DNA of 64,000 nt from a virus (taxonomy: Duplodnaviria; Caudoviricetes): the IMG/VR virus record IMGVR_UViG_3300020576_005257, positions 170,928-234,927 of that record; one strand, 5' to 3'. A program made the translations under genes and the position numbers. Under the pieces are notes generated by a model. The model saw nothing but the letters and a program-made list of their open reading frames with translations. It did not search any database and was not told where the DNA came from. Each line of letters starts with the position of its first letter. Positions within the stretch are counted from its first letter, which is position 1. Below are positions 29,088 through 46,950 of the stretch, one piece after another.

Positions 29088-29440
29088 TCTTCTATTTTAC
29101 ATGTGACTTCATACCAAATAGGAGGACTACCAGGTCTTGGTATGCCTCTATCTTTTTCCCAGGGATATGGGTTTAAGGGATTATAAGGAGTAGGTCTTGG
29201 GTTGGTAATTGGTTGGGGTAGAGGTGGTAATGTGGGAATATCTAATCCCGCATAAATAATCACTAAATCAGAAATAGCCACTAATTTCTTTAAAGAATTA
29301 TTAAGGTTATTTATTTTGGTAGAATAAGTTTTAACAAGTGCCTGTGTGTCAACAGAAATTTCTATTAACTCTTGCTCAATACAAGCTACAATTTCTATAA
29401 AATTGGCTTTAGTTGTAAATTTGATATTATAAACTGACAT
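29084..29440 (-). CDS. Hypothetical protein with Pro-rich C-terminus
   Basis: 118 aa overlapping rmlA stop. Confidence 0.55.
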   Translation of the reverse strand: MSVYNIKFTTKANFIEIVACIEQELIEISVDTQALVKTYSTKINNLNNSLKKLVAISDLVIIYAGLDIPTLPPLPQPITNPRPTPYNPLNPYPWEKDRGIPRPGSPPIWYEVTCKIED

Positions 29441-30497
29441 TACTATCGTCTCCTAGTACGAAAACCTTGAATTGTTTAGCTTGATCTTCATTTTTTGGTT
29501 CTTCTTCTAAGTATACGTTCCTACCAATTAAAGAGTTTCTACAAGCTTTGATTGAATATAGTGAGGATCCATCCATTACAATTGAATTTTCAATATGAGT
29601 ATTCTCAATAAACACATTATTTCCAATTGAAGTAAATGCTCCCACATAACTATTGGCTATCACTGTATTTTCTCCAATAATAGCTGGTCCTTCAATTAGT
29701 GAATTGATAACTTTAGCTGTTTTATGTAAAATTACGTGGTCTGTAACGACACTATCATAAATTTCACCTGCTAAATCTTCTGAAATAGACGATAAAACCA
29801 CCTCATTTGCCTCAATTAGAGCCTCACTACTGCCTGTATCTTTCCACCAAGCCTCATTAATGGTGTGATGAAGTACAGTGTGCTTGTAGTCCAAGAGTGT
29901 CTGTATAGCCTCAGTAATTTCGTATTCTCCTCTTTTTGAGGGCAATAATTTCTCAATTGCGGCATGAATGATAGGAGAAAAAAGATAAATACCCACCAAA
30001 GCGAGATCGGATTTGGGTTCTACAGGCTTCTCTACGAGATTCACAACAACATCCCCCTCAATTTCTGCTACTCCGAATTGGCTGGGATTTTCTACTTGCT
30101 TTAAAAGGATTGTAGCAGCTGGATTTTGTAGTTTAAATTCTTGTATAACTGGAGATATATCTGCATTTATGAGGTTATCCCCTAAATACATTACAAATGG
30201 ATCGTCCATCAAGAAAGGATGGGCAGTTTTAACAGCGTGTGCGAGTCCTAGAGGCTCATCTTGTACAATATAGGTAAAAGTACACCCCCATCTCTCTCCA
30301 TCGCCACAGGAGCCAATTATAGGGCTATCATGTTCCGATATAATAATGCCAATATTAGTAATTCCAGCCTTTACAAGGGCTTCAATCCCATATTCCACCA
30401 CAGGTTTATTAGCAATAGGTATAAGTTGCTTAGAAATCGAGTAGGTAAGGGGTCTAAGCCTTGTTCCTTTACCACCTGCAAGTATTAATCCTTTCAA
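29427..30497 (-). CDS. rmlA: Glucose-1-phosphate thymidylyltransferase (long form)
   Basis: MKGLILAGGKGTRLRPLT, KQLIPIANKP, YLGDN, EKP, RGEYEIT, C-terminal beta-helix. Confidence 0.95.
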   Translation of the reverse strand: MKGLILAGGKGTRLRPLTYSISKQLIPIANKPVVEYGIEALVKAGITNIGIIISEHDSPIIGSCGDGERWGCTFTYIVQDEPLGLAHAVKTAHPFLMDDPFVMYLGDNLINADISPVIQEFKLQNPAATILLKQVENPSQFGVAEIEGDVVVNLVEKPVEPKSDLALVGIYLFSPIIHAAIEKLLPSKRGEYEITEAIQTLLDYKHTVLHHTINEAWWKDTGSSEALIEANEVVLSSISEDLAGEIYDSVVTDHVILHKTAKVINSLIEGPAIIGENTVIANSYVGAFTSIGNNVFIENTHIENSIVMDGSSLYSIKACRNSLIGRNVYLEEEPKNEDQAKQFKVFVLGDDSNVSL

Positions 30498-31531
30498 AGG
30501 TCTTCTCCTAAACTTTTAGAGTAAAACTGAGTGACAAAGTTCCTATAATCATCAGTTTCCTGAATTTCTTTCCACCAATTCTCGTTTTCTTTGTACCAAT
30601 TGATGGTTTCTTTAAGTCCATCATCAAAATTTTTCTTAGCTTTCCAGCCTAATTCTGTTTCAATCTTATCAGTACAGAGAGAATACCTCATATCGTGGGC
30701 ATTTTTTCTCGGATCTTCAATGTATTTAATCAAATCCTCCCCCTTTTCAGTCTCAGCAAGAAGAATTTGTACAATTTCCATATTGTTCCTTTCATTTACA
30801 TCACCAATATTGTAAATTTCCCCAATTTTCCCTCTCTCCAAAACTGAAAGTACACCTTCTGCGTGATCTTCAGCATGAATCCATTCTCTTACAGCCGATC
30901 CATTACCATAAACAGGAATTTTTTTGTTTTCTAGAAGCCTGGTAAGGAAAAAAGGAATCAGTTTTTCTGGGTATTGGTTAGGACCATAGGTGTTTCCCCC
31001 TCTCGTAATACAAACAGGGGTCCCAAATGTATTATGGTGGGCTAGTGCGATTAATTCACCCCCAGCCTTAGCTGCTGAGTAAGGAGTATTAGGATGAATA
31101 GGATCAGTTTCCTTAAAACTACCGTTCTTAATACTACCATATGATTCATCAGTAGATACATGAACTAGCTTCTTAACAGAAAATTTATTGGCTAAATCAC
31201 AAAGAACTCCAACTCCTTCCACATTTGTCTCAATAAAAGATGTAGGATTAGTTAGTGATCTATCATTATGGGTCTCAGCCGCAAAGTTTACAATATAATC
31301 AGGAACTTCTTTTTCAAACCAGGAAGATAAAAGAATTCTATCTTGAATTAATCCTTTTACCAAAGGAATATTTGGAGGTAAGTTATGAGGATTACCAGCA
31401 TAGGTAAGGGCATCATAAACAACAATGCTGGCTTCTGGATACTTTTGTTTAACTAACTTAGCAAAAGTAGAACCAATGAAACCAGCACCACCGCAAACCA
31501 ATATAGAAGATTTAGTTAAATCTACTTTCAT
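30494..31531 (-). CDS. rmlB: dTDP-glucose 4,6-dehydratase (start corrected to MKVDL)
   Basis: GGAGFIGS, DALTYAGN, NFAAETHNDRS, STDESYG, YSAAK, YGPNQYPEKLIP; longer start would overlap tRNA-Cys. Confidence 0.95.
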   Translation of the reverse strand: MKVDLTKSSILVCGGAGFIGSTFAKLVKQKYPEASIVVYDALTYAGNPHNLPPNIPLVKGLIQDRILLSSWFEKEVPDYIVNFAAETHNDRSLTNPTSFIETNVEGVGVLCDLANKFSVKKLVHVSTDESYGSIKNGSFKETDPIHPNTPYSAAKAGGELIALAHHNTFGTPVCITRGGNTYGPNQYPEKLIPFFLTRLLENKKIPVYGNGSAVREWIHAEDHAEGVLSVLERGKIGEIYNIGDVNERNNMEIVQILLAETEKGEDLIKYIEDPRKNAHDMRYSLCTDKIETELGWKAKKNFDDGLKETINWYKENENWWKEIQETDDYRNFVTQFYSKSLGEDL

Positions 31532-31545
31532 TACAGAAGTAGTGT

Positions 31546-31622
31546 TGGAGGACCAAGAGGGAATCGAACCCCCGAAAATCACCAGGTTGCAACTGGTTGC
31601 CTTACCATTTGGCTATTGGTCC
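31546..31622 (-). tRNA. tRNA-Cys(GCA)
   Basis: GGACCAA/TTGGTCC acceptor, ACCAG-TTGCAAC-CTGGT anticodon arm, TTCGATT T-loop, U73, encoded CCA. Confidence 0.9.
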
Positions 31623-35920: not shown

Positions 35921-36013
35921 TCCTTATATAGTGTAACAACAGAATCGTACAGTAAACCCCTTCACCTTCTACATGAAGGTGAACTTCGTTTCCATCCAAG
36001 TGTTACATCAAAA

Positions 36014-36424
36014 TCATTTTGAATGATTTTGTGCAGTTTGGGTTTTCCAACCCAAACTGACATCATTTGCTTTCCAGATTGGAAGCAAATTAGTATACAG
36101 AGTACAATCAAAAGGAGGATTCCCATAGACTAAAGCATCTACACAATCACCATGTACACATACTACAATAGCCTTATATACCTGGGGGTTTCTATTGATC
36201 TTCTTACCCTTATTGGAAATAGCCTTAGGAGGTTCATGTACCTCAATTTCAGCTCCAATAGATACTGCTGGAATAGGGTTATCTAGGAGCATAGCAATTT
36301 CTTGCTCAGCTTCTAACAGTGTGTCAAATGATTTCATTTTACTGTTAGAGATTGCATCCCATACCTGATACTGCTTACTAAAGTAAGTAATATAGGGTTT
36401 GATATCATCTTTCTTTTTTTCCAT
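36014..36424 (-). CDS. Hypothetical protein (start probably MEKKKD)
   Basis: ORF track 36014..36472; first ATG with purine-rich leader at 36424. Confidence 0.5.
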   Translation of the reverse strand: MEKKKDDIKPYITYFSKQYQVWDAISNSKMKSFDTLLEAEQEIAMLLDNPIPAVSIGAEIEVHEPPKAISNKGKKINRNPQVYKAIVVCVHGDCVDALVYGNPPFDCTLYTNLLPIWKANDVSLGWKTQTAQNHSK

Positions 36425-36598
36425 AGAACTACCCTTTCCTGGGAAACCTATACACATGAGGTTTGTCTTCAATACTGGAAATATACTATTCTACTTTTAT
36501 TTATGGTCCTTAACCTAAAAAGTTTCATCTTCCAGATTTTGGTTTTATATTTTTTCTATGTACAGCAGAAATAGAGTAAAAGGGAAACTGGAAATTAT

Positions 36599-36784
36599 AC
36601 CCCCACCCCTTTTATATAAAGGTTTAACTATGCTCCTTCTTACTTGTGAATAGTAGGTCTTAGGTCCTAGACAAATAATAACCATTAAAACTTCACTGTT
36701 AGCTCATCAAAGATAAAATCATTACAAACTCATATATGTATATGAATGGGGGGTACCTACTATTTAAGACCCCCACCCCTTTTT
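36599..36784 (+). repeat. 15-bp direct repeat ACCCCCACCCCTTTT x2 at the strand switch
   Basis: Copies begin at 36599 and 36769. Confidence 0.8.
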
Positions 36785-36870
36785 CCAGGATTTGTGGTGA
36801 TCGCCATTCATATTACATTCTTCAGAATTTACGGAGAGTTATGGATGCATCAAGCATTCGAAAGGTTAAC

Positions 36871-37101
36871 ATGAAAATCTCACCTATCGTTCTCATCATC
36901 ACAGCATGTGTCATCATGGTCGGCTCTTGGACTATATTGAAACTTCAGTATCAGGTATACGAAAAGACTGCCTACACAGAAGGCTACACACAAGCACTCA
37001 AGGACATCCGCTCGTCATTCAAAGGATCTGTCCCTGCTGAGGTGGAGTACAAAGGCAAAGCATTATTAGCTGGTGCTGATGCTACCAAACTCGCTCTCTA
37101 G
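36871..37101 (+). CDS. Small N-terminally anchored protein
   Basis: MKISPIVLIITACVIMVGSW hydrophobic N-terminus; AAGG leader. Confidence 0.6.
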   Translation: MKISPIVLIITACVIMVGSWTILKLQYQVYEKTAYTEGYTQALKDIRSSFKGSVPAEVEYKGKALLAGADATKLAL

Positions 37102-37129
37102 TCTCTCGTCACACACATAGGTAACTACT

Positions 37130-37264
37130 ATGAAATTCGCTCGTAACAAAACCAAGTCTCGTAATGCTCGCCGCTACTACCGTGGTGAAACGACCGCTCG
37201 TAATCACAAGCCTATCCGCAAGGACAGACTTCACAACCACAACACAGGAGTCTGCACAGCATGA
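37130..37264 (+). CDS. 44-aa very basic protein (not in ORF track)
   Basis: MKFARNKTKSRNARRYYRGE...; AGGT leader; ATGA overlap with next gene. Confidence 0.55.
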   Translation: MKFARNKTKSRNARRYYRGETTARNHKPIRKDRLHNHNTGVCTA

Positions 37265-37467
37265 TGTCCTGGCTCTATGACCAAGCATCTCCAACTACAT
37301 CCAACCTTTTAAAGGCTGGGTACACGTTGGCAGAAGTCAACAAAATCAGATGCAGTGAAGGTCGCACCTGTACGGGGTGTAATCAACCCATTCACTGGTC
37401 TCGGTACAACGAAACGTTGTGTCCCAACTGTCTCTCTGAGGAATACGCACAGCAATGCTCGGCGTAG
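37261..37467 (+). CDS. Small Zn-finger protein
   Basis: CTGC...CPNC. Confidence 0.6.
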   Translation: MMSWLYDQASPTTSNLLKAGYTLAEVNKIRCSEGRTCTGCNQPIHWSRYNETLCPNCLSEEYAQQCSA

Positions 37468-37528
37468 CTCTCATCGCCATCGGACTCCTCTTCGGAGGGG
37501 TCTACTACTCTTGTCTCGGTAAACACTC

Positions 37529-37786
37529 ATGAAAGTTCCCGCATTCTTCGGCTCAGCACTACGTGCTCCTTCCCACATCATCTCCACACTTGCTATCAAG
37601 CAACAGGAGATCAAGTCTCAACCAAGCCAAACAGCAATGGCTCTCGACCGCATGGAGAAACTCCAAGCAAGGGTCAACGAAACCAAGCTCACTCTGGATG
37701 AAGCCAAGGACGCAGTTACTCGTGCTCAACTGAGTTACGATACGGCTGTCCAAAACCTGGCTATCTTCCGGAATTCGATCCGCTAA
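37529..37786 (+). CDS. Small coiled-coil protein
   Basis: 85 aa flanked by hairpins. Confidence 0.6.
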   Translation: MKVPAFFGSALRAPSHIISTLAIKQQEIKSQPSQTAMALDRMEKLQARVNETKLTLDEAKDAVTRAQLSYDTAVQNLAIFRNSIR

Positions 37787-38006
37787 CAAAATCCTACTAC
37801 CTGGTACTAACTGGGTAGTAGGTAAAATTTTTTCTCGTCCGACCGATATGTGGCATACCTCTCCGTAAAGGGGAGGATGGATGGTATGACCTACAAGCTG
37901 AAGCTACTCGCTTCGCTCGTCGGAGACCTGCGGTAGGTTGGGGGAGAGGGGAGTCTTGGACCTACCATTAGACTCTCCCTTAGTCTAAAATCAATCATGG
38001 GTATTT

Positions 38007-38099
38007 ATGCAACTAATCCTGCTGTTCCTAATCTTCGTCGTCGTTCCGGCTTTACTGATCGGACTCGTCGTCCATCTACTGGACAAATGGCAGATCTAG
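38007..38099 (+). CDS. 30-aa single-TM peptide (not in ORF track)
   Basis: MQLILLFLIFVVVPALLIGLVVHLLDKWQI; codon style matches neighbours. Confidence 0.5.
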   Translation: MQLILLFLIFVVVPALLIGLVVHLLDKWQI

Positions 38100-38761
38100 A
38101 TCTGCCAGGAGCCACCTTGTTCACCAAGGTTCCCCCGAAGGGGGTGGCTCGGGGCCACGAAGTGGCCCACATAAAGAACAGCACACTTGCTTTCTTTACT
38201 CTCTTATTCTATACAGGGAGTTTCTTTACTTCACCTATGGGTGAGTCAATTACTGCTCCTTCAGGAGATGTTAATTGTTACTCATGGTCGAAAACCTCTG
38301 GTTTTCTAGACCTTTCCCATTCTGAGACTTCACTAAAAAATCCCTCTGTCTAAAATAATTTATTTGAGCCTAGGGGTCTATGTTAAGTCTCTCTCATGTA
38401 ACCCTTAATAGCCCCCAATCCGGGGGGTGTTAATTGTTACAACACTTGAAAAAGTACCTTTTTCACCTAGTTTGACTCATCAACTAGGCTTTTTGCTCTC
38501 TCTGTACTAGTCTTCTGGTTTACCCATAGATCAATTACTCCTCCCATGGGGGGGATAAAAACAATGATCTCTTCCAGAATACAAGTACAAACTCTACCTA
38601 TGTGCAACCTTTAGGTTGCACGAGAAAGAACTAACCACGTATGTGAGTTGGTAACTTCACTAAGTTAGCTTTCTTTCTCCCTACTGGAAATATAGACTTC
38701 ATGTCTTGTTTCCCTCTACACACTCTATTCTATTCTCTCTCTTCTCTTTCTCCTTTCATCT

Positions 38762-39148
38762 ATGCCCCGTATCTACTGGGCTACCTATTCCAAACTCTCT
38801 CACAAAACTATGAAATACTCTGATCTCCGTCCTGGTGATACTCTCACCTATGCTACCTACGTCTCTCGTGTTGATTACCTCGACATCCCCAAGTATTGGA
38901 TGGAGTCTTCAACACTTCGAACTACCAACCTATGGGGTAGTATGGTCAGCACTACATATATTGAAGTTGCTGATAACCTTCCTTCTGACATTCTCATGGT
39001 TCGTCGTAATGACAAACCAATCTATGTCAAGGGTCTACCTTATCCACTTCCCATTCCCAAACCTAAAGGTGACATCCGCAAACGGCTTGATGCTCACCGT
39101 GTCCTTAAGTCTTCTTCTACAAAGACAAAGGGATACTGGCATCTATGA
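38762..39148 (+). CDS. Hypothetical protein
   Basis: 128-aa ORF; DLRPGD motif. Confidence 0.55.
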   Translation: MPRIYWATYSKLSHKTMKYSDLRPGDTLTYATYVSRVDYLDIPKYWMESSTLRTTNLWGSMVSTTYIEVADNLPSDILMVRRNDKPIYVKGLPYPLPIPKPKGDIRKRLDAHRVLKSSSTKTKGYWHL

Positions 39149-39346
39149 AGTACTCTTCCAATTCTTTGGATTAGTCTTCAACAACATAGTGAAAAAAATC
39201 AACTATGGGTATATTTCAGACCCATAGCTTTTCACTATTTCTCATCCTTCCAGGTTGTGCATTACAAATGCTTCTACAACCACTCTCTCTAGGTCACGGA
39301 GGTACCTTTACTTGGGGCTAGGTTCCACTTAGCCCCACTCTCACTC

Positions 39347-39682
39347 ATGTACAACTTTGGTCAATTCATGGGGCACCTTGGTGTCCTCATCTCTCGTATT
39401 TTCACCGAAGCATATCGCCAATCTCAGTTCACTGAATTGGAGGATGCTGTTACTGGTAGAAAACCCAAACCTACCCTTCAGGTAGTTAACACTGACTACG
39501 GCACTATCACCGTTAAATACGGCGATGAGCAAGTAGTCCTTGAACGTGTACGTCGTACTGACTCTTGGCAACCCATCGGGATGTTCCAAGGGGAAGTAGG
39601 CTACCTACGACCTGGCAAACTACCAATCCCTGGAAGGGATGCTGCCATCTGCTGGGCTAAATCCTACTTAGGTGCAGCCTAG
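39347..39682 (+). CDS. Hypothetical protein
   Basis: 111 aa, preceded by hairpin. Confidence 0.6.
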   Translation: MYNFGQFMGHLGVLISRIFTEAYRQSQFTELEDAVTGRKPKPTLQVVNTDYGTITVKYGDEQVVLERVRRTDSWQPIGMFQGEVGYLRPGKLPIPGRDAAICWAKSYLGAA

Positions 39683-39929
39683 TCTCACCTGGAGTCTCAC
39701 ACCTATGATGTTCCTCATCTCACTCATGCCATTCTTGGCAATCAACTTCTTCACTGTACTCTGTCTCATGACAGGGGACTACTCATCTGCAAGGGGTTAT
39801 TTCATGACCTCCTTGCCATTCCTCTCCTTCGTTATCTTGGTTCCATTCTTCCACACCTTGTGGAGACGGAACCTTAAGCTCCTCAAAGAGCTTAAAGTCA
39901 AACAAGGAGGAGATAATGATCTCCTCTAA
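39672..39929 (+). CDS. Two-TM membrane protein
   Basis: Two hydrophobic segments, overlapping neighbours. Confidence 0.55.
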   Translation: MQPSLTWSLTPMMFLISLMPFLAINFFTVLCLMTGDYSSARGYFMTSLPFLSFVILVPFFHTLWRRNLKLLKELKVKQGGDNDLL

Positions 39930-40497
39930 CAGCACTGAATCTCTCTTCCCAGAGGACTTCCCTAATGTGTATCGCATTGGCATCACTGGACACCGACCAC
40001 GGGGGTTACTTTCAGTACCCAACCATGGTTATGTGGACTATGCCTACTGCAATACCAAACTCCTTGAGTTCATGCGGTCAACTATGTTCCCCATGATACT
40101 CAACAAATACCCAGATCCTGTCTGTATCTCAGGCATGGCTCTGGGTGCTGATCAAGCTTACATGCAAGTTGCTCAAGAGCTAGGATTCAAGACTGTTGCT
40201 GTTGTACCCTACCCGGAACAACCCAACATCTGGCCTAAAGCTGCCCAGGAACACTATCACCAACTGTGTGCTAATGCCACAGAAGTGATTACAGTGTTTC
40301 CTTCAGGCGAAGCTGGCCTTCTTGATTTCCGTCAAATGCTCTTTATACGCGACAACCGTCTTGTTGACCGATGCACCAATATGGTTGCACTACACAATGG
40401 CCTACCTTCTGGTACTGGTCATACTGTAGGCTATGCTCACCAACAAGGCAAACCTGTCGCCAACTTCTGGAAGCTATGGAGACAATATCTCAAATGA
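39916..40497 (+). CDS. SLOG superfamily, YspA/DUF1273-like protein
   Basis: IGITGHRP, ISGMALGADQ, VVPYPEQ...W, RDNRLVD, SGTGHTVGYA. Confidence 0.9.
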   Translation: MISSNSTESLFPEDFPNVYRIGITGHRPRGLLSVPNHGYVDYAYCNTKLLEFMRSTMFPMILNKYPDPVCISGMALGADQAYMQVAQELGFKTVAVVPYPEQPNIWPKAAQEHYHQLCANATEVITVFPSGEAGLLDFRQMLFIRDNRLVDRCTNMVALHNGLPSGTGHTVGYAHQQGKPVANFWKLWRQYLK

Positions 40498-40817
40498 AGA
40501 AAACTCACCCTACTCTTACCAGTCACCTCAAAGATTTTGAAGTCAATATCAAAACTTTTGAGGAGGCAGTCGGTACGTCTGCCGATATCACTGGTTATAC
40601 GCTCAAAATGCGTACCCATTTTCACACTCTGCATGAGAAGGGCTTTATAAGCCCTGAACTTTATGCCAAGTTCAACAAGCATCTTGATTCCATCAATGAT
40701 ACTCTCCATGATCTTGGTCACGAAGCCTTCATCGTTTACGATTCTCTCACTGAGGAACAACTGTTCCTTGTACAACTCACTCAGAACTCAGTTCCACCTG
40801 AGTTCATTGATCGTTAG
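40494..40817 (+). CDS. Hypothetical helical protein (start MKKTHP)
   Basis: ATGA overlap with SLOG gene. Confidence 0.6.
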   Translation: MKKTHPTLTSHLKDFEVNIKTFEEAVGTSADITGYTLKMRTHFHTLHEKGFISPELYAKFNKHLDSINDTLHDLGHEAFIVYDSLTEEQLFLVQLTQNSVPPEFIDR

Positions 40818-40896
40818 CAAGCATTCGCTTGCCATGTCCTAGCACTCCAAAGGAAGTGCTTACCCTAGCTATGCTAGGGGTTGTCTCACTAGTAAC

Positions 40897-41538
40897 ATGC
40901 AACACGTTCGATATGGTACAGCTCTGCTGACCCTTCCTACAATTCCTGCTCCCACTTCTGGTGGTGAGCCTCTACAACATCCTGTCGTTCGGCATCTTCT
41001 TGCCGGACGTATTGACGATGCAATCGTTGGTATTCGAGAGCTGGGTCTTACCCAAGCTCGCCATGCTAATGGTACCACTGTGTACTCTGGTGAAGGAATT
41101 GAAATCCTTCACACCACAATTGCATTGTCAGCTGAACTCAAACCTGACACATTCTCCCTAGACATCAACGACCGCTGTGTCATTAATGACAAACAGGGAC
41201 GGTCTATGGACTGGGACTGCGATGGTGATCCCATTCAACTTATCCTCTTCAAGGAATTAGTTGATGGGGAAATTATCACCAAAGCTATTCACGTCAAATT
41301 TCCAGCCCCCAAACTTCCACCTGTGTGGAAGATGGTTCCTCTGCCAGAACCTGTTCTCAAAGGTCTTTCCAAAGCCAAGGCAACTTCATTGATTAATGAA
41401 GGTCCTCCAGTTCCTGACTGGATTGCTGCTATGAAAAAGACTTTTACTCCACAGCCTATTGGCACCGTCACCATTAGATGGTGGAACCATATCATGTCTC
41501 TTTATCATCAAGCATTTCTTAATGCTTCTAACAACTGA
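40897..41538 (+). CDS. Second RNA polymerase, catalytic (beta-prime-like) fragment
   Basis: NDKQGRSMDWDCDGD...GEIITKAIHVKFP aligns with NDIQAGAMVVDMDGD...GNIIEEFMIPVKEP of 25305..29087. Confidence 0.75.
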   Translation: MQHVRYGTALLTLPTIPAPTSGGEPLQHPVVRHLLAGRIDDAIVGIRELGLTQARHANGTTVYSGEGIEILHTTIALSAELKPDTFSLDINDRCVINDKQGRSMDWDCDGDPIQLILFKELVDGEIITKAIHVKFPAPKLPPVWKMVPLPEPVLKGLSKAKATSLINEGPPVPDWIAAMKKTFTPQPIGTVTIRWWNHIMSLYHQAFLNASNN

Positions 41539-41633
41539 TCGTTGCTCTCTTAGAGCACTATTCAAAAGCTCCAACGTCGGTTGGACTTCCCGTCGGATGC
41601 TAGTCCGATAACTCACGCCTGGTTACTAATAAC

Positions 41634-43415
41634 ATGAACCTCAGTCTGTTCAAATCAATTGTTTCTCCTTTGTCACAGGCTTTCCGTGACGACCTTGAAG
41701 GTCGCACTATGAAAGCCGCCCGTAAGGGCGAAGGAGCTGAACGTCCTCTCATCTTCGACCTCCCAGTCGAATCAATGGATCCAATTACTGCCGTATTCTA
41801 TGGTAGTCGTGGAGCCATCTCCCAATCTGCCAATCTTGGCTATTCCTGGGATGAGGTGGAACTTGCGGCCAACGGCCATATGCAATTCACCGAAGCCCGT
41901 AAACACAAAGATCCTAATCCAACCCGTCAGGCTTGGACTGATGATCCTGTTCAGAGTGATTATTCACTCGTTGCTTGGCTCATCAAAGGGGGCTACTTGC
42001 AAGTTCAAGAACTTGCTGCCACCCGTAAAGGTGTTCCACCTGCTATCTCTGTGTCTCTCTTCAATCCAGCTACTGGAAAACATTCGGCATTCGTCTGGAA
42101 GAAGGATATGGGTGGTGATCACGTCGGTTTCTCAACCGTTCTGTATCCCGCCTATGTCTACGAACCTTCCACTGGAGAAGGCCGTGTAATGAGTCCTCTC
42201 GAACACTTGTCACTTTACGTGACTCGTCACTATGGTTGCTCTTGCAACATCACTACTCTGGGCTATGTCTCAGCCATCTTCAAAGGTGGCGGAGCTTATG
42301 CCCTTGAGTCATGCCTCAAGAAGTTCGTTGAACTTTTTGGCGATGTTGTCCCATCTACCATCACAGATGGTAGGCACACACCCTACAAGAATGCGAAGTT
42401 CTTCGCTTCTCGTACTGTTGTTGTGGACCATAGCTCCTTCCCCAGTTTCATGGGTAAGGAAACCAGCATTGATGTAATGATGCGTATTACCGCCCAAGCT
42501 TCCAAAGCTTTTGGTGGTATCCATTATCCATCAACTGGTAGTCGTCCTTCTCTCCGCAAGCATTTCCTTGCTGGCGAGAATCGTTTCCCAGAGTTCTGCT
42601 CTGGTATGAGCGAAGCTCATCGACCTGGCCGCAATCGTTCTCTGCTTGTTCGCACTCTGCGTACCAGCAATATGAAGGTTGCACTTGTGGTCACTGATTC
42701 CCTTCAGTGCTACATCACTCCCACAGGTATCGAGAAATCAAAACCTGAAATTGATACCTTCCTTCCACAGGTATCATTCGAGCCAGTTGAAAACTGGCCT
42801 ATGCTTGAACTCTCCAGTTGGTCTGGTAAGACCACTACTGTTTGGGTTTCTCCAAACCCTAAACAAGAGTCCAAGCGTGTTGGCAAGCTCCTTGACCAAG
42901 AGGGGTCTCGTTTCGAGCCCCGTGAGGTTGGACAATGGACTACTGAAGATGGTACTCCCATCGACGTTCTCTACTCCACTGCTGAAGCTGAAGACAAAAA
43001 GCTCATGGCTTTCTTTCTCAGCAAAGCCACACCTCAGACCATCATTGGTCCAAAGGGTGAACAGATCAAAACTTATGTTTTTGATCATCACCTATTCCGT
43101 TCCGGTGTCGCATCCGAAAACATTCAACCACGTTTCTTGAAACAGTGGACTGTTGAAAGTTTCACAGGCAAGCTCCTTGCTTGTGTACTTCAGGATGAAG
43201 ACCTTCGTTTCACAACCCGGAACAACTTCCAGATGCTAAGAGCTAAAGCTCTTTATGAGTCAGCAGAACTGCTTGCTCATCAACCAGAGGGTACTGAAGT
43301 GGAGCTTCTCAAAGAACTCCCATCTGACTTGTCAGATGAACAACTTCAAGATGAAGACACTCACGAAGCACTTACTGTGCCAATCGGTGAGATTGTCGGC
43401 ATCGAAGTCCTCTGA
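41634..43415 (+). CDS. Second RNA polymerase, large fragment (trigger-loop-like plus beta-like)
   Basis: DDLEGRTMKAARK vs DDIEVRSLKVGRN; GKLLDQEGSR...EDGTPIDVLYS beta DPBB motif. Confidence 0.72.
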   Translation: MNLSLFKSIVSPLSQAFRDDLEGRTMKAARKGEGAERPLIFDLPVESMDPITAVFYGSRGAISQSANLGYSWDEVELAANGHMQFTEARKHKDPNPTRQAWTDDPVQSDYSLVAWLIKGGYLQVQELAATRKGVPPAISVSLFNPATGKHSAFVWKKDMGGDHVGFSTVLYPAYVYEPSTGEGRVMSPLEHLSLYVTRHYGCSCNITTLGYVSAIFKGGGAYALESCLKKFVELFGDVVPSTITDGRHTPYKNAKFFASRTVVVDHSSFPSFMGKETSIDVMMRITAQASKAFGGIHYPSTGSRPSLRKHFLAGENRFPEFCSGMSEAHRPGRNRSLLVRTLRTSNMKVALVVTDSLQCYITPTGIEKSKPEIDTFLPQVSFEPVENWPMLELSSWSGKTTTVWVSPNPKQESKRVGKLLDQEGSRFEPREVGQWTTEDGTPIDVLYSTAEAEDKKLMAFFLSKATPQTIIGPKGEQIKTYVFDHHLFRSGVASENIQPRFLKQWTVESFTGKLLACVLQDEDLRFTTRNNFQMLRAKALYESAELLAHQPEGTEVELLKELPSDLSDEQLQDEDTHEALTVPIGEIVGIEVL

Positions 43416-43429
43416 CATCTGTCACAATT

Positions 43430-43457
43430 ACCCCCGTAGGTGCAAGCCTACGGGGGT
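43430..43457 (+). promoter_or_regulatory. Conserved-loop hairpin 1
   Basis: ACCCCCGTAGG-TGCAAG-CCTACGGGGGT. Confidence 0.55.
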
Positions 43458-43763
43458 GTACATTTTTTCTTGAAACTATTCACGGTCCTTCTGGCATTCG
43501 CCTCCAGGAACATTCATAGTTTCACTAGGTTAGACTTCTAACATTTAAAATGTTTTAGACTTCTTGGAATACTGTTTCCTAGAGGTAGAAAAATCAATTT
43601 TGGGTAACAGCCTGAGCTATGCTCTCGTCACTTACCAATACTTTTTTTTGGCTAGCCCTACCACTGGGTGTAGACAATCTCAAGTACTGGTATAGACTAC
43701 GAGTAAAATCAATCTCGGGTTCTGTGAAACCCAAATTCAAAACAGAGGTCTAACTTCAAAACA

Positions 43764-44636
43764 ATGATTACCAAATCACCTTCCGCCACTCTCAATCTGA
43801 GTGCTCTCCGTACTGCTAACGAAGCAGTCGTTCTGGAGAACTTCACGATTGACCTTACTCTCTCCACTCCTGAGCCAATCGCAGAAGGTCCATTCAAGGG
43901 CCTTCCTCAAGTCGTTGGCGAAGGCATCTCCTTCCGGGGCACCGGAGGCGTCGAAAACCGTGTGTATCCCACACGCATCGAAGTCCGAGCAGTCGAGTCT
44001 TCCAAGAATCTTCTTGAAGAAGACGAAGACGCTGAGGACCTCATCGGCTTCATCGGTCAACGAGTGACCACAGTTCATTCTGTCCTCTTCGGACGCAAGA
44101 TGATCCCCGATCCCGATGCCAAGGTTGGCAAGCCCAAGATGATCTTGAGCCCTGACGAAGTGGAACTCCAGACCATGCGTACTGGTCTTTCGTTCAACAA
44201 GAACTCGGCCAATCCCAACATGCGTTCTGTGTCTTTCATGCGAAAGAACACCAACTTGTTCATCCCACCAGGTGACAAGGCCGCAGCTGCTGAAGCAGCC
44301 GACTCCGAATCCAAGGCTTCTGCTACTAGCGAAGTTGGTAAGCGAGTCCTCAATGCGTTCAATGCAATTGAGCGAGCTGTTCGTGACTCCTTTGAGGGCA
44401 TTGACCTCAAACGATTCGAACAGGGCGGCGATCTCGCTCATCTCAGCAAGGAAGTCAAGGACGAATTCCGTGCTTACGACACAGCTGTTCGCAAAGTCGC
44501 AGCTCATCTCAAGAATTGGAAGCGTCCTTCAACTGATGCCAAGCCGAGTGTCACAAACACTCCAGCTCAGGCTAAGGTTGAAAAGACCGAGCCAATGTCC
44601 ATTGACGATCTGGAGGCAGAAGTTAAGTCTTCTTGA
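43764..44636 (+). CDS. Highly expressed hypothetical protein (possible nucleic-acid-binding cofactor)
   Basis: 290 aa, strong C-ending codon bias, beta-rich N-half, acidic tail. Confidence 0.65.
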   Translation: MITKSPSATLNLSALRTANEAVVLENFTIDLTLSTPEPIAEGPFKGLPQVVGEGISFRGTGGVENRVYPTRIEVRAVESSKNLLEEDEDAEDLIGFIGQRVTTVHSVLFGRKMIPDPDAKVGKPKMILSPDEVELQTMRTGLSFNKNSANPNMRSVSFMRKNTNLFIPPGDKAAAAEAADSESKASATSEVGKRVLNAFNAIERAVRDSFEGIDLKRFEQGGDLAHLSKEVKDEFRAYDTAVRKVAAHLKNWKRPSTDAKPSVTNTPAQAKVEKTEPMSIDDLEAEVKSS

Positions 44637-44651
44637 TTCCAGCTTCATCAT

Positions 44652-44677
44652 CCCCCTAGGTGTAACAGCCTAGGGGG
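44652..44677 (+). promoter_or_regulatory. Conserved-loop hairpin 2
   Basis: CCCCCTAGG-TGTAACAG-CCTAGGGGG, no U-tract. Confidence 0.55.
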
Positions 44678-44703
44678 TATCAGATAAGCAACCGGAGAAA
44701 ACT

Positions 44704-45153
44704 ATGAGTTTCTTTATGCTCCTAGTCGCCACTACGCTGGCGATCTTCATCCTTATGGCTTCCATCAAAGCCATCCTTACCGCTGTCAGAATGTGGCGTA
44801 ATGGGGCACAAGTGTCCTCGACTGCCATGTTTATGTCAGCAGCAGCTGGAATCCTTCTGGTTTCCATGATGTTTACCAACCCAGTAACCTGGGCTGTACT
44901 CGGTATCACCGCGATGTACACCATTGCAATCGACATCTGTCGTGGCATTCTGTACAACCTCGCTGAATGGGAAACTGAGTATGCTGCTGCTCCAATCACC
45001 TCGACTTTCGTAGGTCTTTGGAACAAAGGCAAGACTTGGAACGCAGACCGTAAGGTCAAACGTGCCGAGAAGCTTCCCAACACCGAGTATCAACAGGATC
45101 CTGGTGTTCCAGGTGCTGTCATCCAAGGTACTCCAGAACCTGTAGGAGCGTAA
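44704..45153 (+). CDS. Multi-TM membrane protein
   Basis: Three hydrophobic segments, GGAG RBS. Confidence 0.7.
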   Translation: MSFFMLLVATTLAIFILMASIKAILTAVRMWRNGAQVSSTAMFMSAAAGILLVSMMFTNPVTWAVLGITAMYTIAIDICRGILYNLAEWETEYAAAPITSTFVGLWNKGKTWNADRKVKRAEKLPNTEYQQDPGVPGAVIQGTPEPVGA

Positions 45154-45159
45154 TCTTAA

Positions 45160-45555
45160 TTGATTACACTCTTCCTCTTCATCAATGCCCTTGCACTTTT
45201 AACTATTGCGTATAACGCAGCAGTGTGCATGGTCTTCTCTGCCAAACAACAAGACTTGGTAGGAGCCCTTATTCAAGGTCTCGTATCAGCCTTCTCTCTC
45301 CTGCTTGCAGGATGTTGGATTATGCTAATGTTTGCTGGTCTTACATACCTGTTGCCTGGCGACTTTCTGCTACTTGGAGTCAACATTGTGTTGGCTATCT
45401 GGTATTCAATAATCGCCAGCTCTGTCAAGGAGGAGATGGGGTATTCTGCCCCAATTTGTGCATTCGTCACAAATAAAGTACTGCCTGGTATAGCCAGCTG
45501 GGGTGACAAACGTCGCACCACTAAGGCAATCTCAGCCGACCCTGTTGCAGTTTAA
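45160..45555 (+). CDS. Multi-TM membrane protein
   Basis: Three hydrophobic segments, AGGAG RBS. Confidence 0.65.
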   Translation: MITLFLFINALALLTIAYNAAVCMVFSAKQQDLVGALIQGLVSAFSLLLAGCWIMLMFAGLTYLLPGDFLLLGVNIVLAIWYSIIASSVKEEMGYSAPICAFVTNKVLPGIASWGDKRRTTKAISADPVAV

Positions 45556-45571
45556 TCTGCAACCAAAAATC

Positions 45572-45597
45572 AGCTGTGGGTGTAACAACCCACAGCT
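45572..45597 (+). promoter_or_regulatory. Conserved-loop hairpin 3
   Basis: AGCTGTGGG-TGTAACAA-CCCACAGCT, no U-tract. Confidence 0.55.
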
Positions 45598-45620
45598 CTA
45601 CTCAAACGGAGTCTCACCAA

Positions 45621-45905
45621 ATGTTTGTTTACATCATCATCGGCCTTGCTACAGTTAGTGTAGCATTCGAGCTATTCTTGTTCTCCAAGTTCCCAGCTCT
45701 TCTCAAATTTTGCAAGCAGTTCCCACTTGTAGGTATTGGCTTGTCCATGTTCCTCAGTGTATTCCTAGCTGGATTGTTCCATGCTGGAGGAATGGCAGTG
45801 GCTGCTGCTGCTATCATTTCCACTCTTGCAACCGCTATCTATTACTCGGTTGCTAATGGTTGCCGTGCAATCATGGATCGTTTTTTCTCTTGGCGTGAGT
45901 GCTGA
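45621..45905 (+). CDS. Multi-TM membrane protein (start MFVYII)
   Basis: GGAG leader, three hydrophobic segments. Confidence 0.65.
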   Translation: MFVYIIIGLATVSVAFELFLFSKFPALLKFCKQFPLVGIGLSMFLSVFLAGLFHAGGMAVAAAAIISTLATAIYYSVANGCRAIMDRFFSWREC

Positions 45906-45944
45906 TAAGCACCATGGCTCATGGCCATGTGTGTAAAACAACGG

Positions 45945-46950
45945 GGTCCCTTTGAAACTTGGGACCCCTATTTTCCCCCGCCCCACTCACGTCCAACCCC
46001 AATTAACTGGGGTTATTTCCCGGCCACCACCGGGAATGTTCCTGAGTTGGCTAAGGCAGCTAAGTGAGACTCGCTGCTGAAAGCCAACTTTGGATAACTT
46101 AAATCAATTTCGGGTTCTACCAATTACTGGAAATATCTGGTATTATGGCCCGACTGACGGAGGATGATTAACTATCATGAAGCTCACCTAAGACCACCCG
46201 TAAATGAGAAAAAACCGTTAAGAGCGGTATGATATACTGAGATTTTTTGTAGTCTACCTCATAGGTGTTAAAAGCATCTATGGGGTAATTCCCAATTTGA
46301 CCGACTGACATTAGTTTCCTTGATGCTACTTGTTAGTGGTTAAAAACCAAAAATGGGTTGAACAACAACAGGGTTAAACCTGGTTCAAACCAAACAACAC
46401 AAACATGCAGATCTTCCAGAATTTCTGCATCATAGTGGATAAGAGGGGATCACTCACCTCAAAAGAGAACACCAAATAAGAACCAGCAAAATACTGGTTC
46501 GCTAATTCGACAGTTAAGTCCAACATGAAAATCGGAGTTTCATCCATTCTCCTTCTCGCCATGTATAAACTTTGTCGAATATAAGCAAATCTCAATCACG
46601 ATCTATCTGGTATGATCGGTGAAAGAAAAACCCCAGGGTGACGATCAGCAATGGTTGTCACCCCTAAACACATGAAGGGATTCTGTATAAGAATAACCTA
46701 TGGCTAAGGCCTTCAAAGCCCGAATAATGAGTGAGTAGGAGAAACCCCTACTCCTTTCACCTAAAGTTTTTCAGCCCGAGTAATGGTACAATCTCGGGTT
46801 CTGTTAATAAAAGTTGGGAAGCAATTCTTAACAAAATAGGACGGAGTAAATGAAAGAGCGAAATAGGGTCAAACCTAATAGTAACTCAAATGCAACAAGG
46901 AATATAGCTGGATTACAAGGCATTCCTGTACCAATTGATATGAGCAATTA
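45945..46950 (+). ncRNA. About 1 kb non-coding region rich in stem-loops
   Basis: No convincing ORF; hairpins such as AGTTGGCT...AGCCAACT, GGGTGACGATC..GGTTGTCACCC, CAGCCCGAG..CTCGGGTT. Confidence 0.45.

Follow-up and report, generated by a model that had tools for sequence, protein, structure and literature searches.

The largest subunit of the archaeal RNA polymerase is split between bridge helix and trigger loop (PMC8131849, PMC2675907). Small two-barrel polymerases are also encoded by phages. Thermus phage P23-45 carries two paralogous ones, gp64 (non-virion) and gp96 (virion), and a 798-aa fragment of the clamp-less gp96 (residues 327–1124) is active (bioRxiv 10.1101/2022.12.01.518664 = PMC10770324). 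YonO of Bacillus phage SPbeta is a processive enzyme of ∼100 kDa (PMC5467207, PMC2919709). In polymerases of the phiKZ/AR9 type, the cut in beta′ comes right after the barrel, which is also the cyanobacterial arrangement, and is explicitly stated not to be that of archaea (PMC7598289); mobile introns in the corresponding genes have been proposed as a source of splits (PMC7598289, PMC7824862). Lastly, Orf6 of the Kluyveromyces killer plasmid (982 aa) and Corynebacterium NCgl1702 are beta::beta′ fusions (PMC2919709).

Here we report on two adjacent genes in a 64,000-nt stretch of the genome of an uncultured giant phage (the window, whose positions are used throughout; Table 1), which probably encode the two chains of a single DNA-dependent two-barrel RNA polymerase of the phage, divided by one old fission. 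A profile built from 54 members of their family is covered by gene 1 at positions 36–205 (E = 5e-44) and by gene 2 at positions 217–753 (E = 1e-151), and at the level of sequence these matches are not chance. From their lengths, masses of ∼23 kDa and ∼65 kDa were estimated for subunits 1 and 2, respectively. The beta-like part of gene 2 comprises a lobe/protrusion-type domain and the second barrel.

Pfam and PHROGs searches with both ORFs and a 1260-aa paralog yielded nothing useful, no protein of the window had a PHROG match, and none of the 54 family members matched Pfam. PDB sequences gave no match to the family, by single protein or by profile, and this included gp64 and gp96 of P23-45. 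GenBank phages (tblastn), IMG/VR pattern scans, GTDB genomes and the ESM Atlas (by features) likewise returned nothing useful, so that neither a cultured relative nor a host came to light. Nothing relevant on a permuted or beta′-first two-barrel polymerase was found in the literature, of which the supplements could hold a prior description. The one-gene relatives apparently constitute an undescribed family with the halves in reverse order.

Table 1. Features of the polymerase locus and its paralog, in window coordinates
Feature	Coordinates	Strand	Remarks
Single-chain paralog, 1260 aa	25305..29087	+	beta′-first order as in the pair; family profile E = 5.4e-9
AAAATCAATYWYGGGT, repeated motif, candidate phage promoter	39195..39210	+	upstream of the gene run ending in the polymerase pair
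Gene 1, 213 aa	40897..41538	+	beta′-like subunit, made up of short N-terminal helices, an Mg-binding barrel and a bridge-helix-like segment
Catalytic aspartate triad D107-C-D109-G-D111	41215..41229	+	each Asp invariant (49/49 aligned N-terminal regions)
K134-x-P136, proposed counterpart of beta′ R-x-P (Rpb1 R446/P448)	41296..41304	+	P in 49/49, K in 48/49
Bridge-helix-like segment, residues 174–207	41416..41517	+	K181 and G189-x-x-T192 conserved; G 47/49, T 47/49
Intergenic gap, 95 nt	41539..41633	+	stop in each of three frames; gene 2 frame differs from gene 1
Gene 2, 593 aa	41634..43415	+	trigger-loop-like helix, linker, beta-like part, C-terminal segment predicted to pack onto subunit 1
Trigger-loop-like motif R18-D-D-L-E22-x3-M26-K27-x2-R30	41685..41726	+	in the family, E 47/47, K 44/48
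Q358, Gln in the loop of the beta metal-B acidic pair	42705..42707	+	Q in 41/52
K418-x7-R426, basic pair of the beta barrel (Rpb2 K979/K987)	42885..42911	+	spacing 8; first K 52/52
Probable terminator, strong hairpin and T run	43429..43458	+	3′ of gene 2; z −5.4

The split is present in the DNA, and purifying selection acts on both genes

A first-pass annotation of the window had described a polymerase divided over two genes on the + strand, with a 95-nt gap, a change of frame and stops in all three frames, and had not seen in a single sequencing indel an obvious cause. The two ORFs, the gap, the change of frame and the stops were borne out. The gene boundaries and the gap are identical in three other JGI assemblies, two of which are strain variants with 13–14 SNPs, which argues against an assembly slip. 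As annotated, gene 1 ends shortly after PIGTVTIRWW (residues 187–196 of 213), and gene 2 opens with LEGRTMKAARK (residues 21–31 of 593) and then continues into the beta-like part. Relaxed selection, which would have spoken for a pseudogene, was not found: the strain SNPs comprise 11 synonymous and 2 non-synonymous changes (binomial p = 6e-6), and the end branches of the split members (0.76–0.84) are ordinary compared with those of the fused sisters P0008 and P0007 (0.62–0.87). Both genes are under purifying selection, and the split is present in the DNA without loss of conserved sequence.

Conceivably, the locus could still be a duplicate in decay, or have been misassembled, in a phage that uses its other polymerases. 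The genome does contain other polymerase genes, most relatives (50) are fused, and other breaks in the family look artefactual; in L015 the break falls at a run of N, and in L016 it consists of one in-frame TAG on a contig at 3x coverage, so that neither was accepted as a further split. We nevertheless regard this explanation as exceedingly improbable and largely refuted, since three assemblies with strain SNPs reproduce the boundaries, purifying selection is strong, every family-invariant residue is kept, phages that are 40% identical share the break, and a long branch is absent.

Split members form one clade within a family of fused proteins

The family includes 50 fused proteins of 743–977 aa and three split members, and no more split members were found in the searched data. 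The other two split phages, L001 and L003, are ∼40% identical to the pair described here and are broken in the same loop; homologs are thus not always fused, a point on which the first-pass annotation had made its reading depend. In trees built on subsets of 19 and 15 rows, the three split members formed one clade under two models (94/94 and 94/96; a clade bootstrap of 94 is just under the star mark) that was nested among the fused proteins, which points to one old fission that was subsequently kept. The split is shown to be shared by this three-member clade; the gene that underwent the fission would have been a fused one of ∼800 aa.

If the loop were instead a permissive site that had been broken three times independently, the function of the pair would be as proposed and its history alone would differ. 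Such a course of events would fit the three different junctions (TAA-ATG in L001, an ATGA overlap in L003 and the 95-nt gap in this phage), the variable length of the loop, which holds an 80-aa insertion in the paralog, and the bootstrap value of 94. It is improbable, however, in view of the fact that the split members cluster in 94–97% of the bootstrap trees with no fused member among them.

The two genes are probably translated separately

The gap contains three short hairpins in tandem (z −3.1) and ends in CTAATAAC-ATG at the start of gene 2, while CTAGTAAC-ATG is found at the start of gene 1. An Rfam search of the 95 nt matched no intron or other RNA. In principle, the two ORFs could yield one chain, either by ribosomal hopping over the gap, of which T4 gene 60 is an example, or by its removal through splicing. 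Gene 1 ends in AAC-TGA and an AAC codon stands immediately 5′ of the gene 2 ATG; moreover, the hairpins follow the gene 1 stop, and the joined break would have exactly the length of that in the fused P0007 (a break-spanning motif distance of 43 aa in both). However, TAAC-ATG also precedes gene 1 and other genes, so that it reads like a start signal, the gap lacks an Rfam intron match, and L001 and L003 have no gap, other junction geometries and 20–25 additional terminal residues (break-spanning distance 63–66 aa). A 98-nt hop would, in addition, be about twice that of T4 gene 60. A single chain is therefore very unlikely. Since no terminator-like site was found on the + strand of the gap and one follows gene 2, the two genes are probably co-transcribed, and we favour their separate translation into two subunits.

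Catalytic motifs and fold

The DxDxD triad of the beta′-type barrel, a feature of the two-barrel superfamily, is present in gene 1. The K-x-P motif stands after DxDGD, not before it, and a strand hairpin likewise comes after DxDGD; only 28–30 residues separate DxDGD from the first barrel strand's end, leaving no room for an R-x-P strand. We infer that K134-x-P136 is equivalent to R-x-P, and the catalytic barrel appears to be re-wired, with ∼60 residues aligning weakly to Rpb1 barrels (3.1–3.2 Å, Z 3.6–3.9). In the model of a fused relative (pLDDT 91.6, pTM 0.89), helices 182–190 and 195–216 are located at the bridge-helix-like segment, which we take to resemble beta′ KTANSGYLTRRL, and the break corresponds to the loop between helices 195–216 and 222–251. 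Alignments of the beta′-like part repeatedly cover Rpb1 342–1081 at Z scores within background (3.5–3.9), and with model residues 241–250 they end at Rpb1 1080–1081 (Z 3.7–3.8, weak and at background level). Fold searches restricted to the first 260 residues yielded helical hairpins for the most part. Because the Rpb1 match is at background, the names bridge helix and trigger loop rest largely on the motifs; the annotated position of the break between these two elements fits the model and the weak, repeated Rpb1 alignments.

The C-terminal half of the fused model matches beta/Rpb2 (Foldseek best E = 1e-4, Z 9.7–10.8), with alignments that reach ∼320 residues at 4.3–4.9 Å. Model residues 456/526–715 align to beta barrels over 142–147 residues (Z 8.8–9.9, 3.0–3.2 Å). 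Bacterial beta is matched at Z up to 10.8, the second double-psi barrel being present, and the phiKZ and AR9 polymerases are matched by the beta barrel at Z 9.6 and 8.8; gp64/gp96 of P23-45, gp66 and QDE-1 were not among the fold matches listed. In fused members DxDGD lies at ∼residue 100–240 and the beta barrel at ∼560–715, which places the beta′ part first. Most of the clamp is missing, and additional subunits may for this reason be needed. The second basic residue of the beta barrel is K in 43 sequences and R in 9, the latter representing the whole close clade, fused and split. R426, to which attention had been drawn in the annotation, is indeed there and is common to six fused relatives; as a clade-wide residue it was rejected as a sign of decay.

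No conserved Asp or Glu was found at the beta metal-B site (Rpb2 D837) in columns 573–579 of 52 sequences, where the register of the loop follows from motif and strand pattern and not from residue-level superposition. The beta aspartate is listed among eight residues that are invariant in two-barrel polymerases (PMC2919709). Its absence, the displacement of R-x-P and its change to K-x-P, the reduced clamp and the presence of two other polymerase candidates in the genome could all mean that the pair is a two-barrel homolog but not an ordinary transcriptase, and that its products are primers or short oligonucleotides, that it is a DNA polymerase like the two-barrel PolD, or that a partner has to contribute the acidic residue it lacks. 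We consider this unlikely, as the beta-like half retains the N-terminal lobe/protrusion region (cellular beta is aligned from ∼92 to 1245), the motifs of bridge-helix and trigger-loop type show conservation, a promoter-like motif accompanies the gene, and the clamp-less gp96 is an active RNA polymerase. The pair is presumed to have polymerase activity, and the conserved Glu of the trigger loop, or a Glu of the barrel, may substitute for the missing beta Asp.

Predicted assembly and role of the pair

When the two chains were modelled together, as proposed in the annotation, the halves docked with a complex score of 0.85, compared with 0.00 for the best of 3 controls. The score mark was reached by 58 of 80 solved pairs and by 2 of 110 mismatched pairs. 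At least 92% of the contacts agreed between runs, which used their own alignments, and the partner pLDDT was at least 84; halves of split genes tend to pass. The modelled interface involves K418, R426, the aspartate loop and C-terminal residues 498–544 of gene 2. On docking, the aspartate loop of subunit 1 would meet K418 and R426 of subunit 2, and the C-terminus of subunit 2 is predicted to add a strand and helices to subunit 1, such that the dimer would be held together without alpha or omega. The fission site would be a surface loop that joined bridge helix and trigger loop in the ancestral chain. Made after infection, the pair would follow the two-barrel mechanism in adding NTPs, one chain providing the bridge helix and the other the trigger loop.

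Further copies of the candidate promoter motif occur at 37987, 43590, 43705 and 46100 (5 found versus 0.03 expected), and in L003 and L006 the polymerase gene is directly followed by a similar motif. A conserved 290-aa protein is encoded downstream of the pair. The pair may transcribe early or middle phage genes, this stage being a guess because of the two other polymerase candidates. The 1260-aa paralog, which lies beside virion genes, might act first, as in P23-45. It was found with the family profile among the 262 ORFs of the genome; the match is significant for the N-terminal blocks only, and direct comparisons of the split halves with the paralog by BLAST and hhalign were weak. A charged insertion of ∼100 aa had been ascribed to the paralog at the position of the break. 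Extra sequence is indeed present there (motif distance 118 aa versus a family median of 37, range 33–46), but it amounts to ∼80 aa and, with 29% charged residues against 26% in the whole protein, is not notably charged.

Comparison with known polymerases

As in archaeal Rpo1N/Rpo1C (A′/A″, e.g. PDB 2WB1), the aspartate triad and bridge helix are on the first piece and, subject to the motif assignment, the trigger loop lies close to the N-terminus of the second. The annotation had heard in this an echo of the archaeal split, and the cut does lie between the same two elements (PMC8131849, PMC2675907). Descent from A′/A″ was rejected; since the split arose inside the fused phage family, the likeness is one of convergence. 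Archaeal A″ consists of trigger loop, jaw and clamp C-terminus and is complemented by a separate Rpo2 and small subunits, whereas the second phage chain takes in the entire beta-like part as well, the ancestral chain having had beta′ ahead of beta. The pair of 213 + 593 aa compares with an archaeal enzyme of ∼370 kDa and 13 subunits, and its link between the bridge-helix-like and trigger-loop-like elements is ∼40 aa.

With gp64/gp96 the phage shares the presence of two paralogs, the sufficiency of ∼800 aa and a sequence that is unrecognisable outside DxDGD, but no split form is described there (PMC10770324). A total of ∼800 aa, singled out earlier as very small for a two-barrel RNA polymerase, is small indeed, but has a precedent in the active gp96 fragment. 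gp64/gp96, YonO and crAss phi14:2 gp66 are single chains with the beta barrel before the beta′ barrel, the reverse of the order seen here. YonO, gp66 and QDE-1-type RdRPs are likewise minimal two-barrel enzymes without alpha/omega (PMC5467207, PMC2919709), but they run beta-then-beta′, possess the beta Asp and carry R-x-P ahead of DxDGD, and in the searches run the beta half of the phage family was closer to cellular beta/Rpb2 than to any of them. Split beta/beta′-like pieces without alpha and omega are also found in phiKZ/AR9 (PDB 7OGP, 7S00; PMC7598289, PMC7824862); these enzymes are far larger, with four or five core chains, whereas here two chains span the whole family profile and the cut follows the bridge-helix-like segment. 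Orf6 and NCgl1702 are similarly shrunken fusions of both catalytic subunits (PMC2919709), but they are unsplit and ordered beta then beta′, and Orf6 lacks a detectable trigger motif.

The broader proposal is evenly poised: phages would possess an undescribed family of ∼800-aa RNA polymerases in which the beta′ part comes first, the catalytic barrel is re-wired, with its strands in the order 1-2-5-6-3-4, and the beta metal-B aspartate is lacking. The chains of 213 and 593 aa would act as a heterodimer of this family, its break falling between bridge helix and trigger loop; a virus would have come to the cut seen in archaea independently, and the heterodimer would rank among the smallest two-barrel enzymes of transcription. 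If active, the pair would be a naturally dissected minimal transcription engine, its ∼23-kDa chain bearing the Mg barrel and bridge helix and its ∼65-kDa chain the trigger loop together with the beta barrel, so that mutations or exchanges could be made in the bridge helix or the trigger loop, each on its own chain, with the fused natural relatives as control. The link between these elements would then have been cut twice in evolution, in archaea and in this phage clade, implying that covalent coupling there is dispensable, and host-independent transcription would be added to a 215–245-kb phage group outside the phiKZ/AR9 type. Because the beta aspartate is absent and the R-x-P element apparently comes from elsewhere in the chain, the family would also test the need for 'invariant' two-barrel features.

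In L003, a LAGLIDADG intron is inserted inside DxDGD, and its splicing restores the open frame. An Rfam search did not recognise this intron, which we take to belong to group I from its splice junctions (following a U and a G, respectively), its LAGLIDADG ORF and its core motifs. Elements of the LAGLIDADG type favour conserved sites of needed genes.

The split and its history

Gene 1 (213 aa) and gene 2 (593 aa) had been described in the first-pass annotation as one RNA polymerase broken in two. Their lengths, the quoted motifs, the different reading frames and the 95-nt gap with stops in all three frames were recovered as stated, with DCDGD at residues 107-111 of gene 1. Since gene 1 covered positions 36-205 and gene 2 positions 217-753 in a profile of 54 relatives, the two genes are successive parts of a single protein family. 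Gene boundaries were identical in three JGI assemblies, one of them identical in sequence and two with 13 and 14 SNPs and no indel, which argues against an assembly slip as the cause of the break. Furthermore, 11 of 13 coding SNPs were synonymous and 2 non-synonymous, against a share of about 76% for non-synonymous sites (binomial p 6e-6), and the split members did not exceed the fused sisters P0008 and P0007 in end-branch length. The relaxed selection of a pseudogene was thus not seen. The observation of the split was confirmed, with one correction.

With a fused relative as the query against 1.84 billion representatives, 63 matches were obtained; together with one later match these gave a set of 50 single-chain, full-length members, 743-977 aa long with a median of 844. 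In nearly all fused single chains, DxDGD lies ~100-240 residues from the N-terminus. While most homologs are fused, two other phages (loci L001 and L003) carry the gene cut in the same loop, and the three split pairs are mutually only about 40% identical. In the trees, the split members formed a single branch (94/94 under LG+G4, 94/96 under LG+C20) nested in a starred clade, of which the remaining four members, like the outgroups, are fused. The simplest history for these data is a single fission of a fused ancestor. Across the break, the flanking motifs are 43 residues apart in the window pair, as in fused P0007 (family range 33-46), and the L001 and L003 pairs gained ~20-25 terminal residues there.

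Breaks at two further loci looked like artefacts: one (L015, 2265-2275) sits at a run of N, and the other (L016, 803-805) consists of one TAG stop in frame, in a contig with 3x coverage. The first subunit gene of L003 carries an insert, and its removal between ...GGT and ...TTAG gave DWDCDGDP and restored the open frame. This insert is probably a group I-like intron; a search with Rfam did not recognize it.

Fold and position of the break

Searches of Pfam, PHROGs and PDB sequences gave no match that would name the family. When an AlphaFold2 model of P0007 (pLDDT 91.6, pTM 0.89) was compared with the PDB by Foldseek, the best 50 matches were all beta/Rpb2 chains (best E 1e-4). Residues ~335-715 could be aligned to bacterial beta (92-1245) and to its counterparts from eukaryotes, archaea and viruses (Z 9.7-10.8); for the second barrel by itself, beta pieces of plastid, phiKZ and AR9 enzymes aligned at 3.0-3.2 A. 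In the basic pair of the beta barrel (fused numbering), K636 was present in 52/52 sequences and residue 644 was K in 43 and R in 9. The Arg noted earlier as replacing the second lysine is indeed present in the window pair, and marks the whole close clade of six fused and three split members.

The N-terminal 260 residues, modelled alone (pLDDT 89), matched many Rpb1 chains at Z 3.5-3.9, which by score is background level. Among these weak matches, yeast 342-1081 paired with model 63-245 over 107 residues (3.6 A), and ASFV 317-484 with model 64-150 over 62 residues (3.2 A). The aligned Rpb1 ranges agreed with one another: the barrel comes first, and the alignments stop at the base of the trigger loop, where model 241-250 meets Rpb1 1080-1081. 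The loop that holds the break connects helix 195-216, whose conserved G-x-x-T may be compared with beta' SGYLTRRL, to helix 222-251, whose E-x3-M-K-x2-R was compared with TQLTMRTFH. For the proposed placement between bridge-helix-like and trigger-loop-like segments, motifs and position give good support, and superposition of the model gives weak support.

Among the 262 genome ORFs, the family profile detected the 1260-aa paralog (E 5.4e-9) in blocks 188-343 and 434-504, either side of the break site. Extra sequence is present there, as had been claimed, but it measures ~80 rather than ~100 aa and is not specially charged (29% vs 26% overall). Because the paralog has these extra residues, it shows that the loop is permissive. 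The paralog also has an acidic pair (PDEGV, by eye) at a site that lacks one in the 800-aa family.

In three respects the family as a whole, and not just its split members, differs from known enzymes. Across the family the beta' part comes first and the beta part last, the reverse of the beta-then-beta' order described for fused and single-chain enzymes in PMC2919709 and the P23-45 paper. Between the end of strand 1 of the barrel and DxDGD there are just 28-30 residues, a stretch too short to hold the helix and strand pair in which R-x-P is normally found, and K-x-P (P 49/49, K 48/49) ends a strand hairpinning back after DxDGD. The catalytic barrel would have the strand order 1-2-5-6-3-4 with sheet geometry kept; this re-wiring, if right, would explain the poor beta' structural matches. 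The paralog shares both the beta'-first order and K-x-P after DxDGD. Finally, no conserved acidic residue corresponds to the beta metal-B aspartate, which PMC2919709 counts among eight invariant residues, and a nearby Gln is conserved. The role of the aspartate might be taken over by the invariant Glu of the trigger loop or by Glu residues of the barrel; its absence is the chief ground for doubting ordinary RNA-polymerase chemistry. Within limited library coverage, the literature yielded no description of a two-barrel polymerase that is beta'-first or re-wired.

Assembly and comparison with known enzymes

Complex prediction of the two chains, which the first-pass annotation had proposed, scored 0.85 against 0.00 for the best control, a mark reached by 58/80 solved complexes and 2/110 mismatched pairs. 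At least 92% of contacts were shared between runs, and partner pLDDT was at least 84. Because split-gene halves usually pass such a test, and because the alignments used here were derived from fused relatives by cutting, the model shows fit, not binding. The predicted interface (~460 contacts) includes the chain 1 aspartate loop (104-110) and chain 2 K418, R426 and Q358. Its most confident contacts join large chain 501-527 to small chain 59-71, by which the C-terminus of the beta-like part closes, in the model, onto the N-terminus of the beta'-like part, as a circular permutation of the usual beta-then-beta' order would predict.

In archaea, the bridge helix is part of Rpo1N and the trigger loop is part of Rpo1C (PMC2675907, PMC8131849). 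The suggested echo of this A'/A'' split holds for the functional joint, which is cut in both, but the window pair arose separately and its second subunit differs. Jumbo-phage enzymes are cut after the barrel and not at the archaeal site (PMC7598289). The pair is small, at about 800 aa, but this size has precedent in the 798-aa active fragment of P23-45 gp96 and in YonO (100 kDa). With these qualifications the original interpretation is supported: sequence and models make it quite probable that the pair is a working heterodimeric RNA polymerase. The break itself is a conserved, selected fission within a family of miniature phage two-barrel polymerases that runs in reverse order and appears to be undescribed.

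Genome setting and expression

The virus record comprises 234,927 bases (estimated 95% complete), of which the window is the final 64 kb. Matches to terminase, portal, major capsid and tail-sheath genes on the minus strand at 3.7-23 kb point to a large contractile-tailed phage. The split pair sits within a plus-strand run of mostly small genes beginning at ~36.7 kb, and GC is 0.43-0.49 with C-rich skew over 36000-46000 (the putative early block) vs 0.33-0.39 on both flanks. No cultured relatives of either gene were found among GenBank phages (tblastn) or GTDB genomes.

No plus-strand terminator-like site was found in the 95-nt gap, and a strong one lies 3' of gene 2. Both spacers end in CTA(G/A)TAAC-ATG, a 12-mer with only one further copy in the genome, and neither contains a Shine-Dalgarno-like run. 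A ribosome hop from AAC-TGA to AAC-ATG, joining the products of genes 1 and 2, is conceivable but fits the junctions of the other two split pairs poorly; we read the hairpins and end of the gap as a putative separate start signal for gene 2. Five copies of AAAATCAATYWYGGGT occur between 37987 and 46115 (0.03 expected), clustered around the polymerase genes, and in two relatives, one split and one fused, the motif also lies just 3' of the polymerase gene, making it a candidate phage promoter. If P23-45 is taken as a guide, this region might be transcribed initially by the paralog, which adjoins the virion module, and the role of non-virion polymerase would fall to the split enzyme.

Coordinates of features in the window and at loci of relatives
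Feature	Position	Strand	Remarks
Paralog	25305-29087	+	1260 aa; head-to-head with virion gene module
Nucleotide-sugar genes	29427-31582	-	adjoining paralog
AAAATCAATYWYGGGT	37987, 39195, 43590, 43705, 46100 (+); L003:11742, 11886, 13134; L006:12383		candidate promoter
SLOG (DprA/YpsA-like), NADAR, Macro or DUF4326 genes	39916-40497 (+); L001:7201-8193; L003:6460-6843 and 7572-8030; L005:848-1348; L019:2948-3931		
Spacer before gene 1	40817-40896		three tandem short hairpins (z about -3); ends CTAGTAAC-ATG
Gap before gene 2	41539-41633		three tandem short hairpins (z about -3); ends CTAATAAC-ATG
290-aa gene	43764-44636	+	directly 3' of polymerase pair
685-aa gene	55623-57680	+	phrog_1735
L001 split pair	245-kb contig		249 + 601 aa; junction TAA-ATG
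L003 split pair			245 + 573 aa; junction ATGA
Intron-like insert	L003:8711-9623 (also L002, L004)		913 nt with LAGLIDADG_2 ORF; interrupts DxDGD (DCDG/D) of first subunit gene
419-aa ORF and 476-aa neighbour	G000:C1:50556-53472	+	outside window

The 290-aa gene has homologs (23-35% identity) after the polymerase gene in L001, L003, L006 and L013, and one gene on in L018; its product is a candidate accessory or specificity subunit, or DNA-binding protein. In split as well as fused relatives, SLOG, NADAR, Macro or DUF4326 genes are repeatedly present 5' of the polymerase at a distance of a few genes, suggesting that the same early block also encodes ADP-ribose or nucleotide counter-defence. The profile of the 800-aa family did not detect (E 0.33 and above) two ORFs that lie outside the window, one of 419 aa with DGDGD and its 476-aa neighbour. 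By sequence motif, the genes adjoining the paralog are glucose-1-phosphate thymidylyltransferase-like and dTDP-glucose 4,6-dehydratase-like. The 685-aa protein, of a family found in 553 phage records, is ~50% identical to proteins of Caulobacter phiCbK-like phages.
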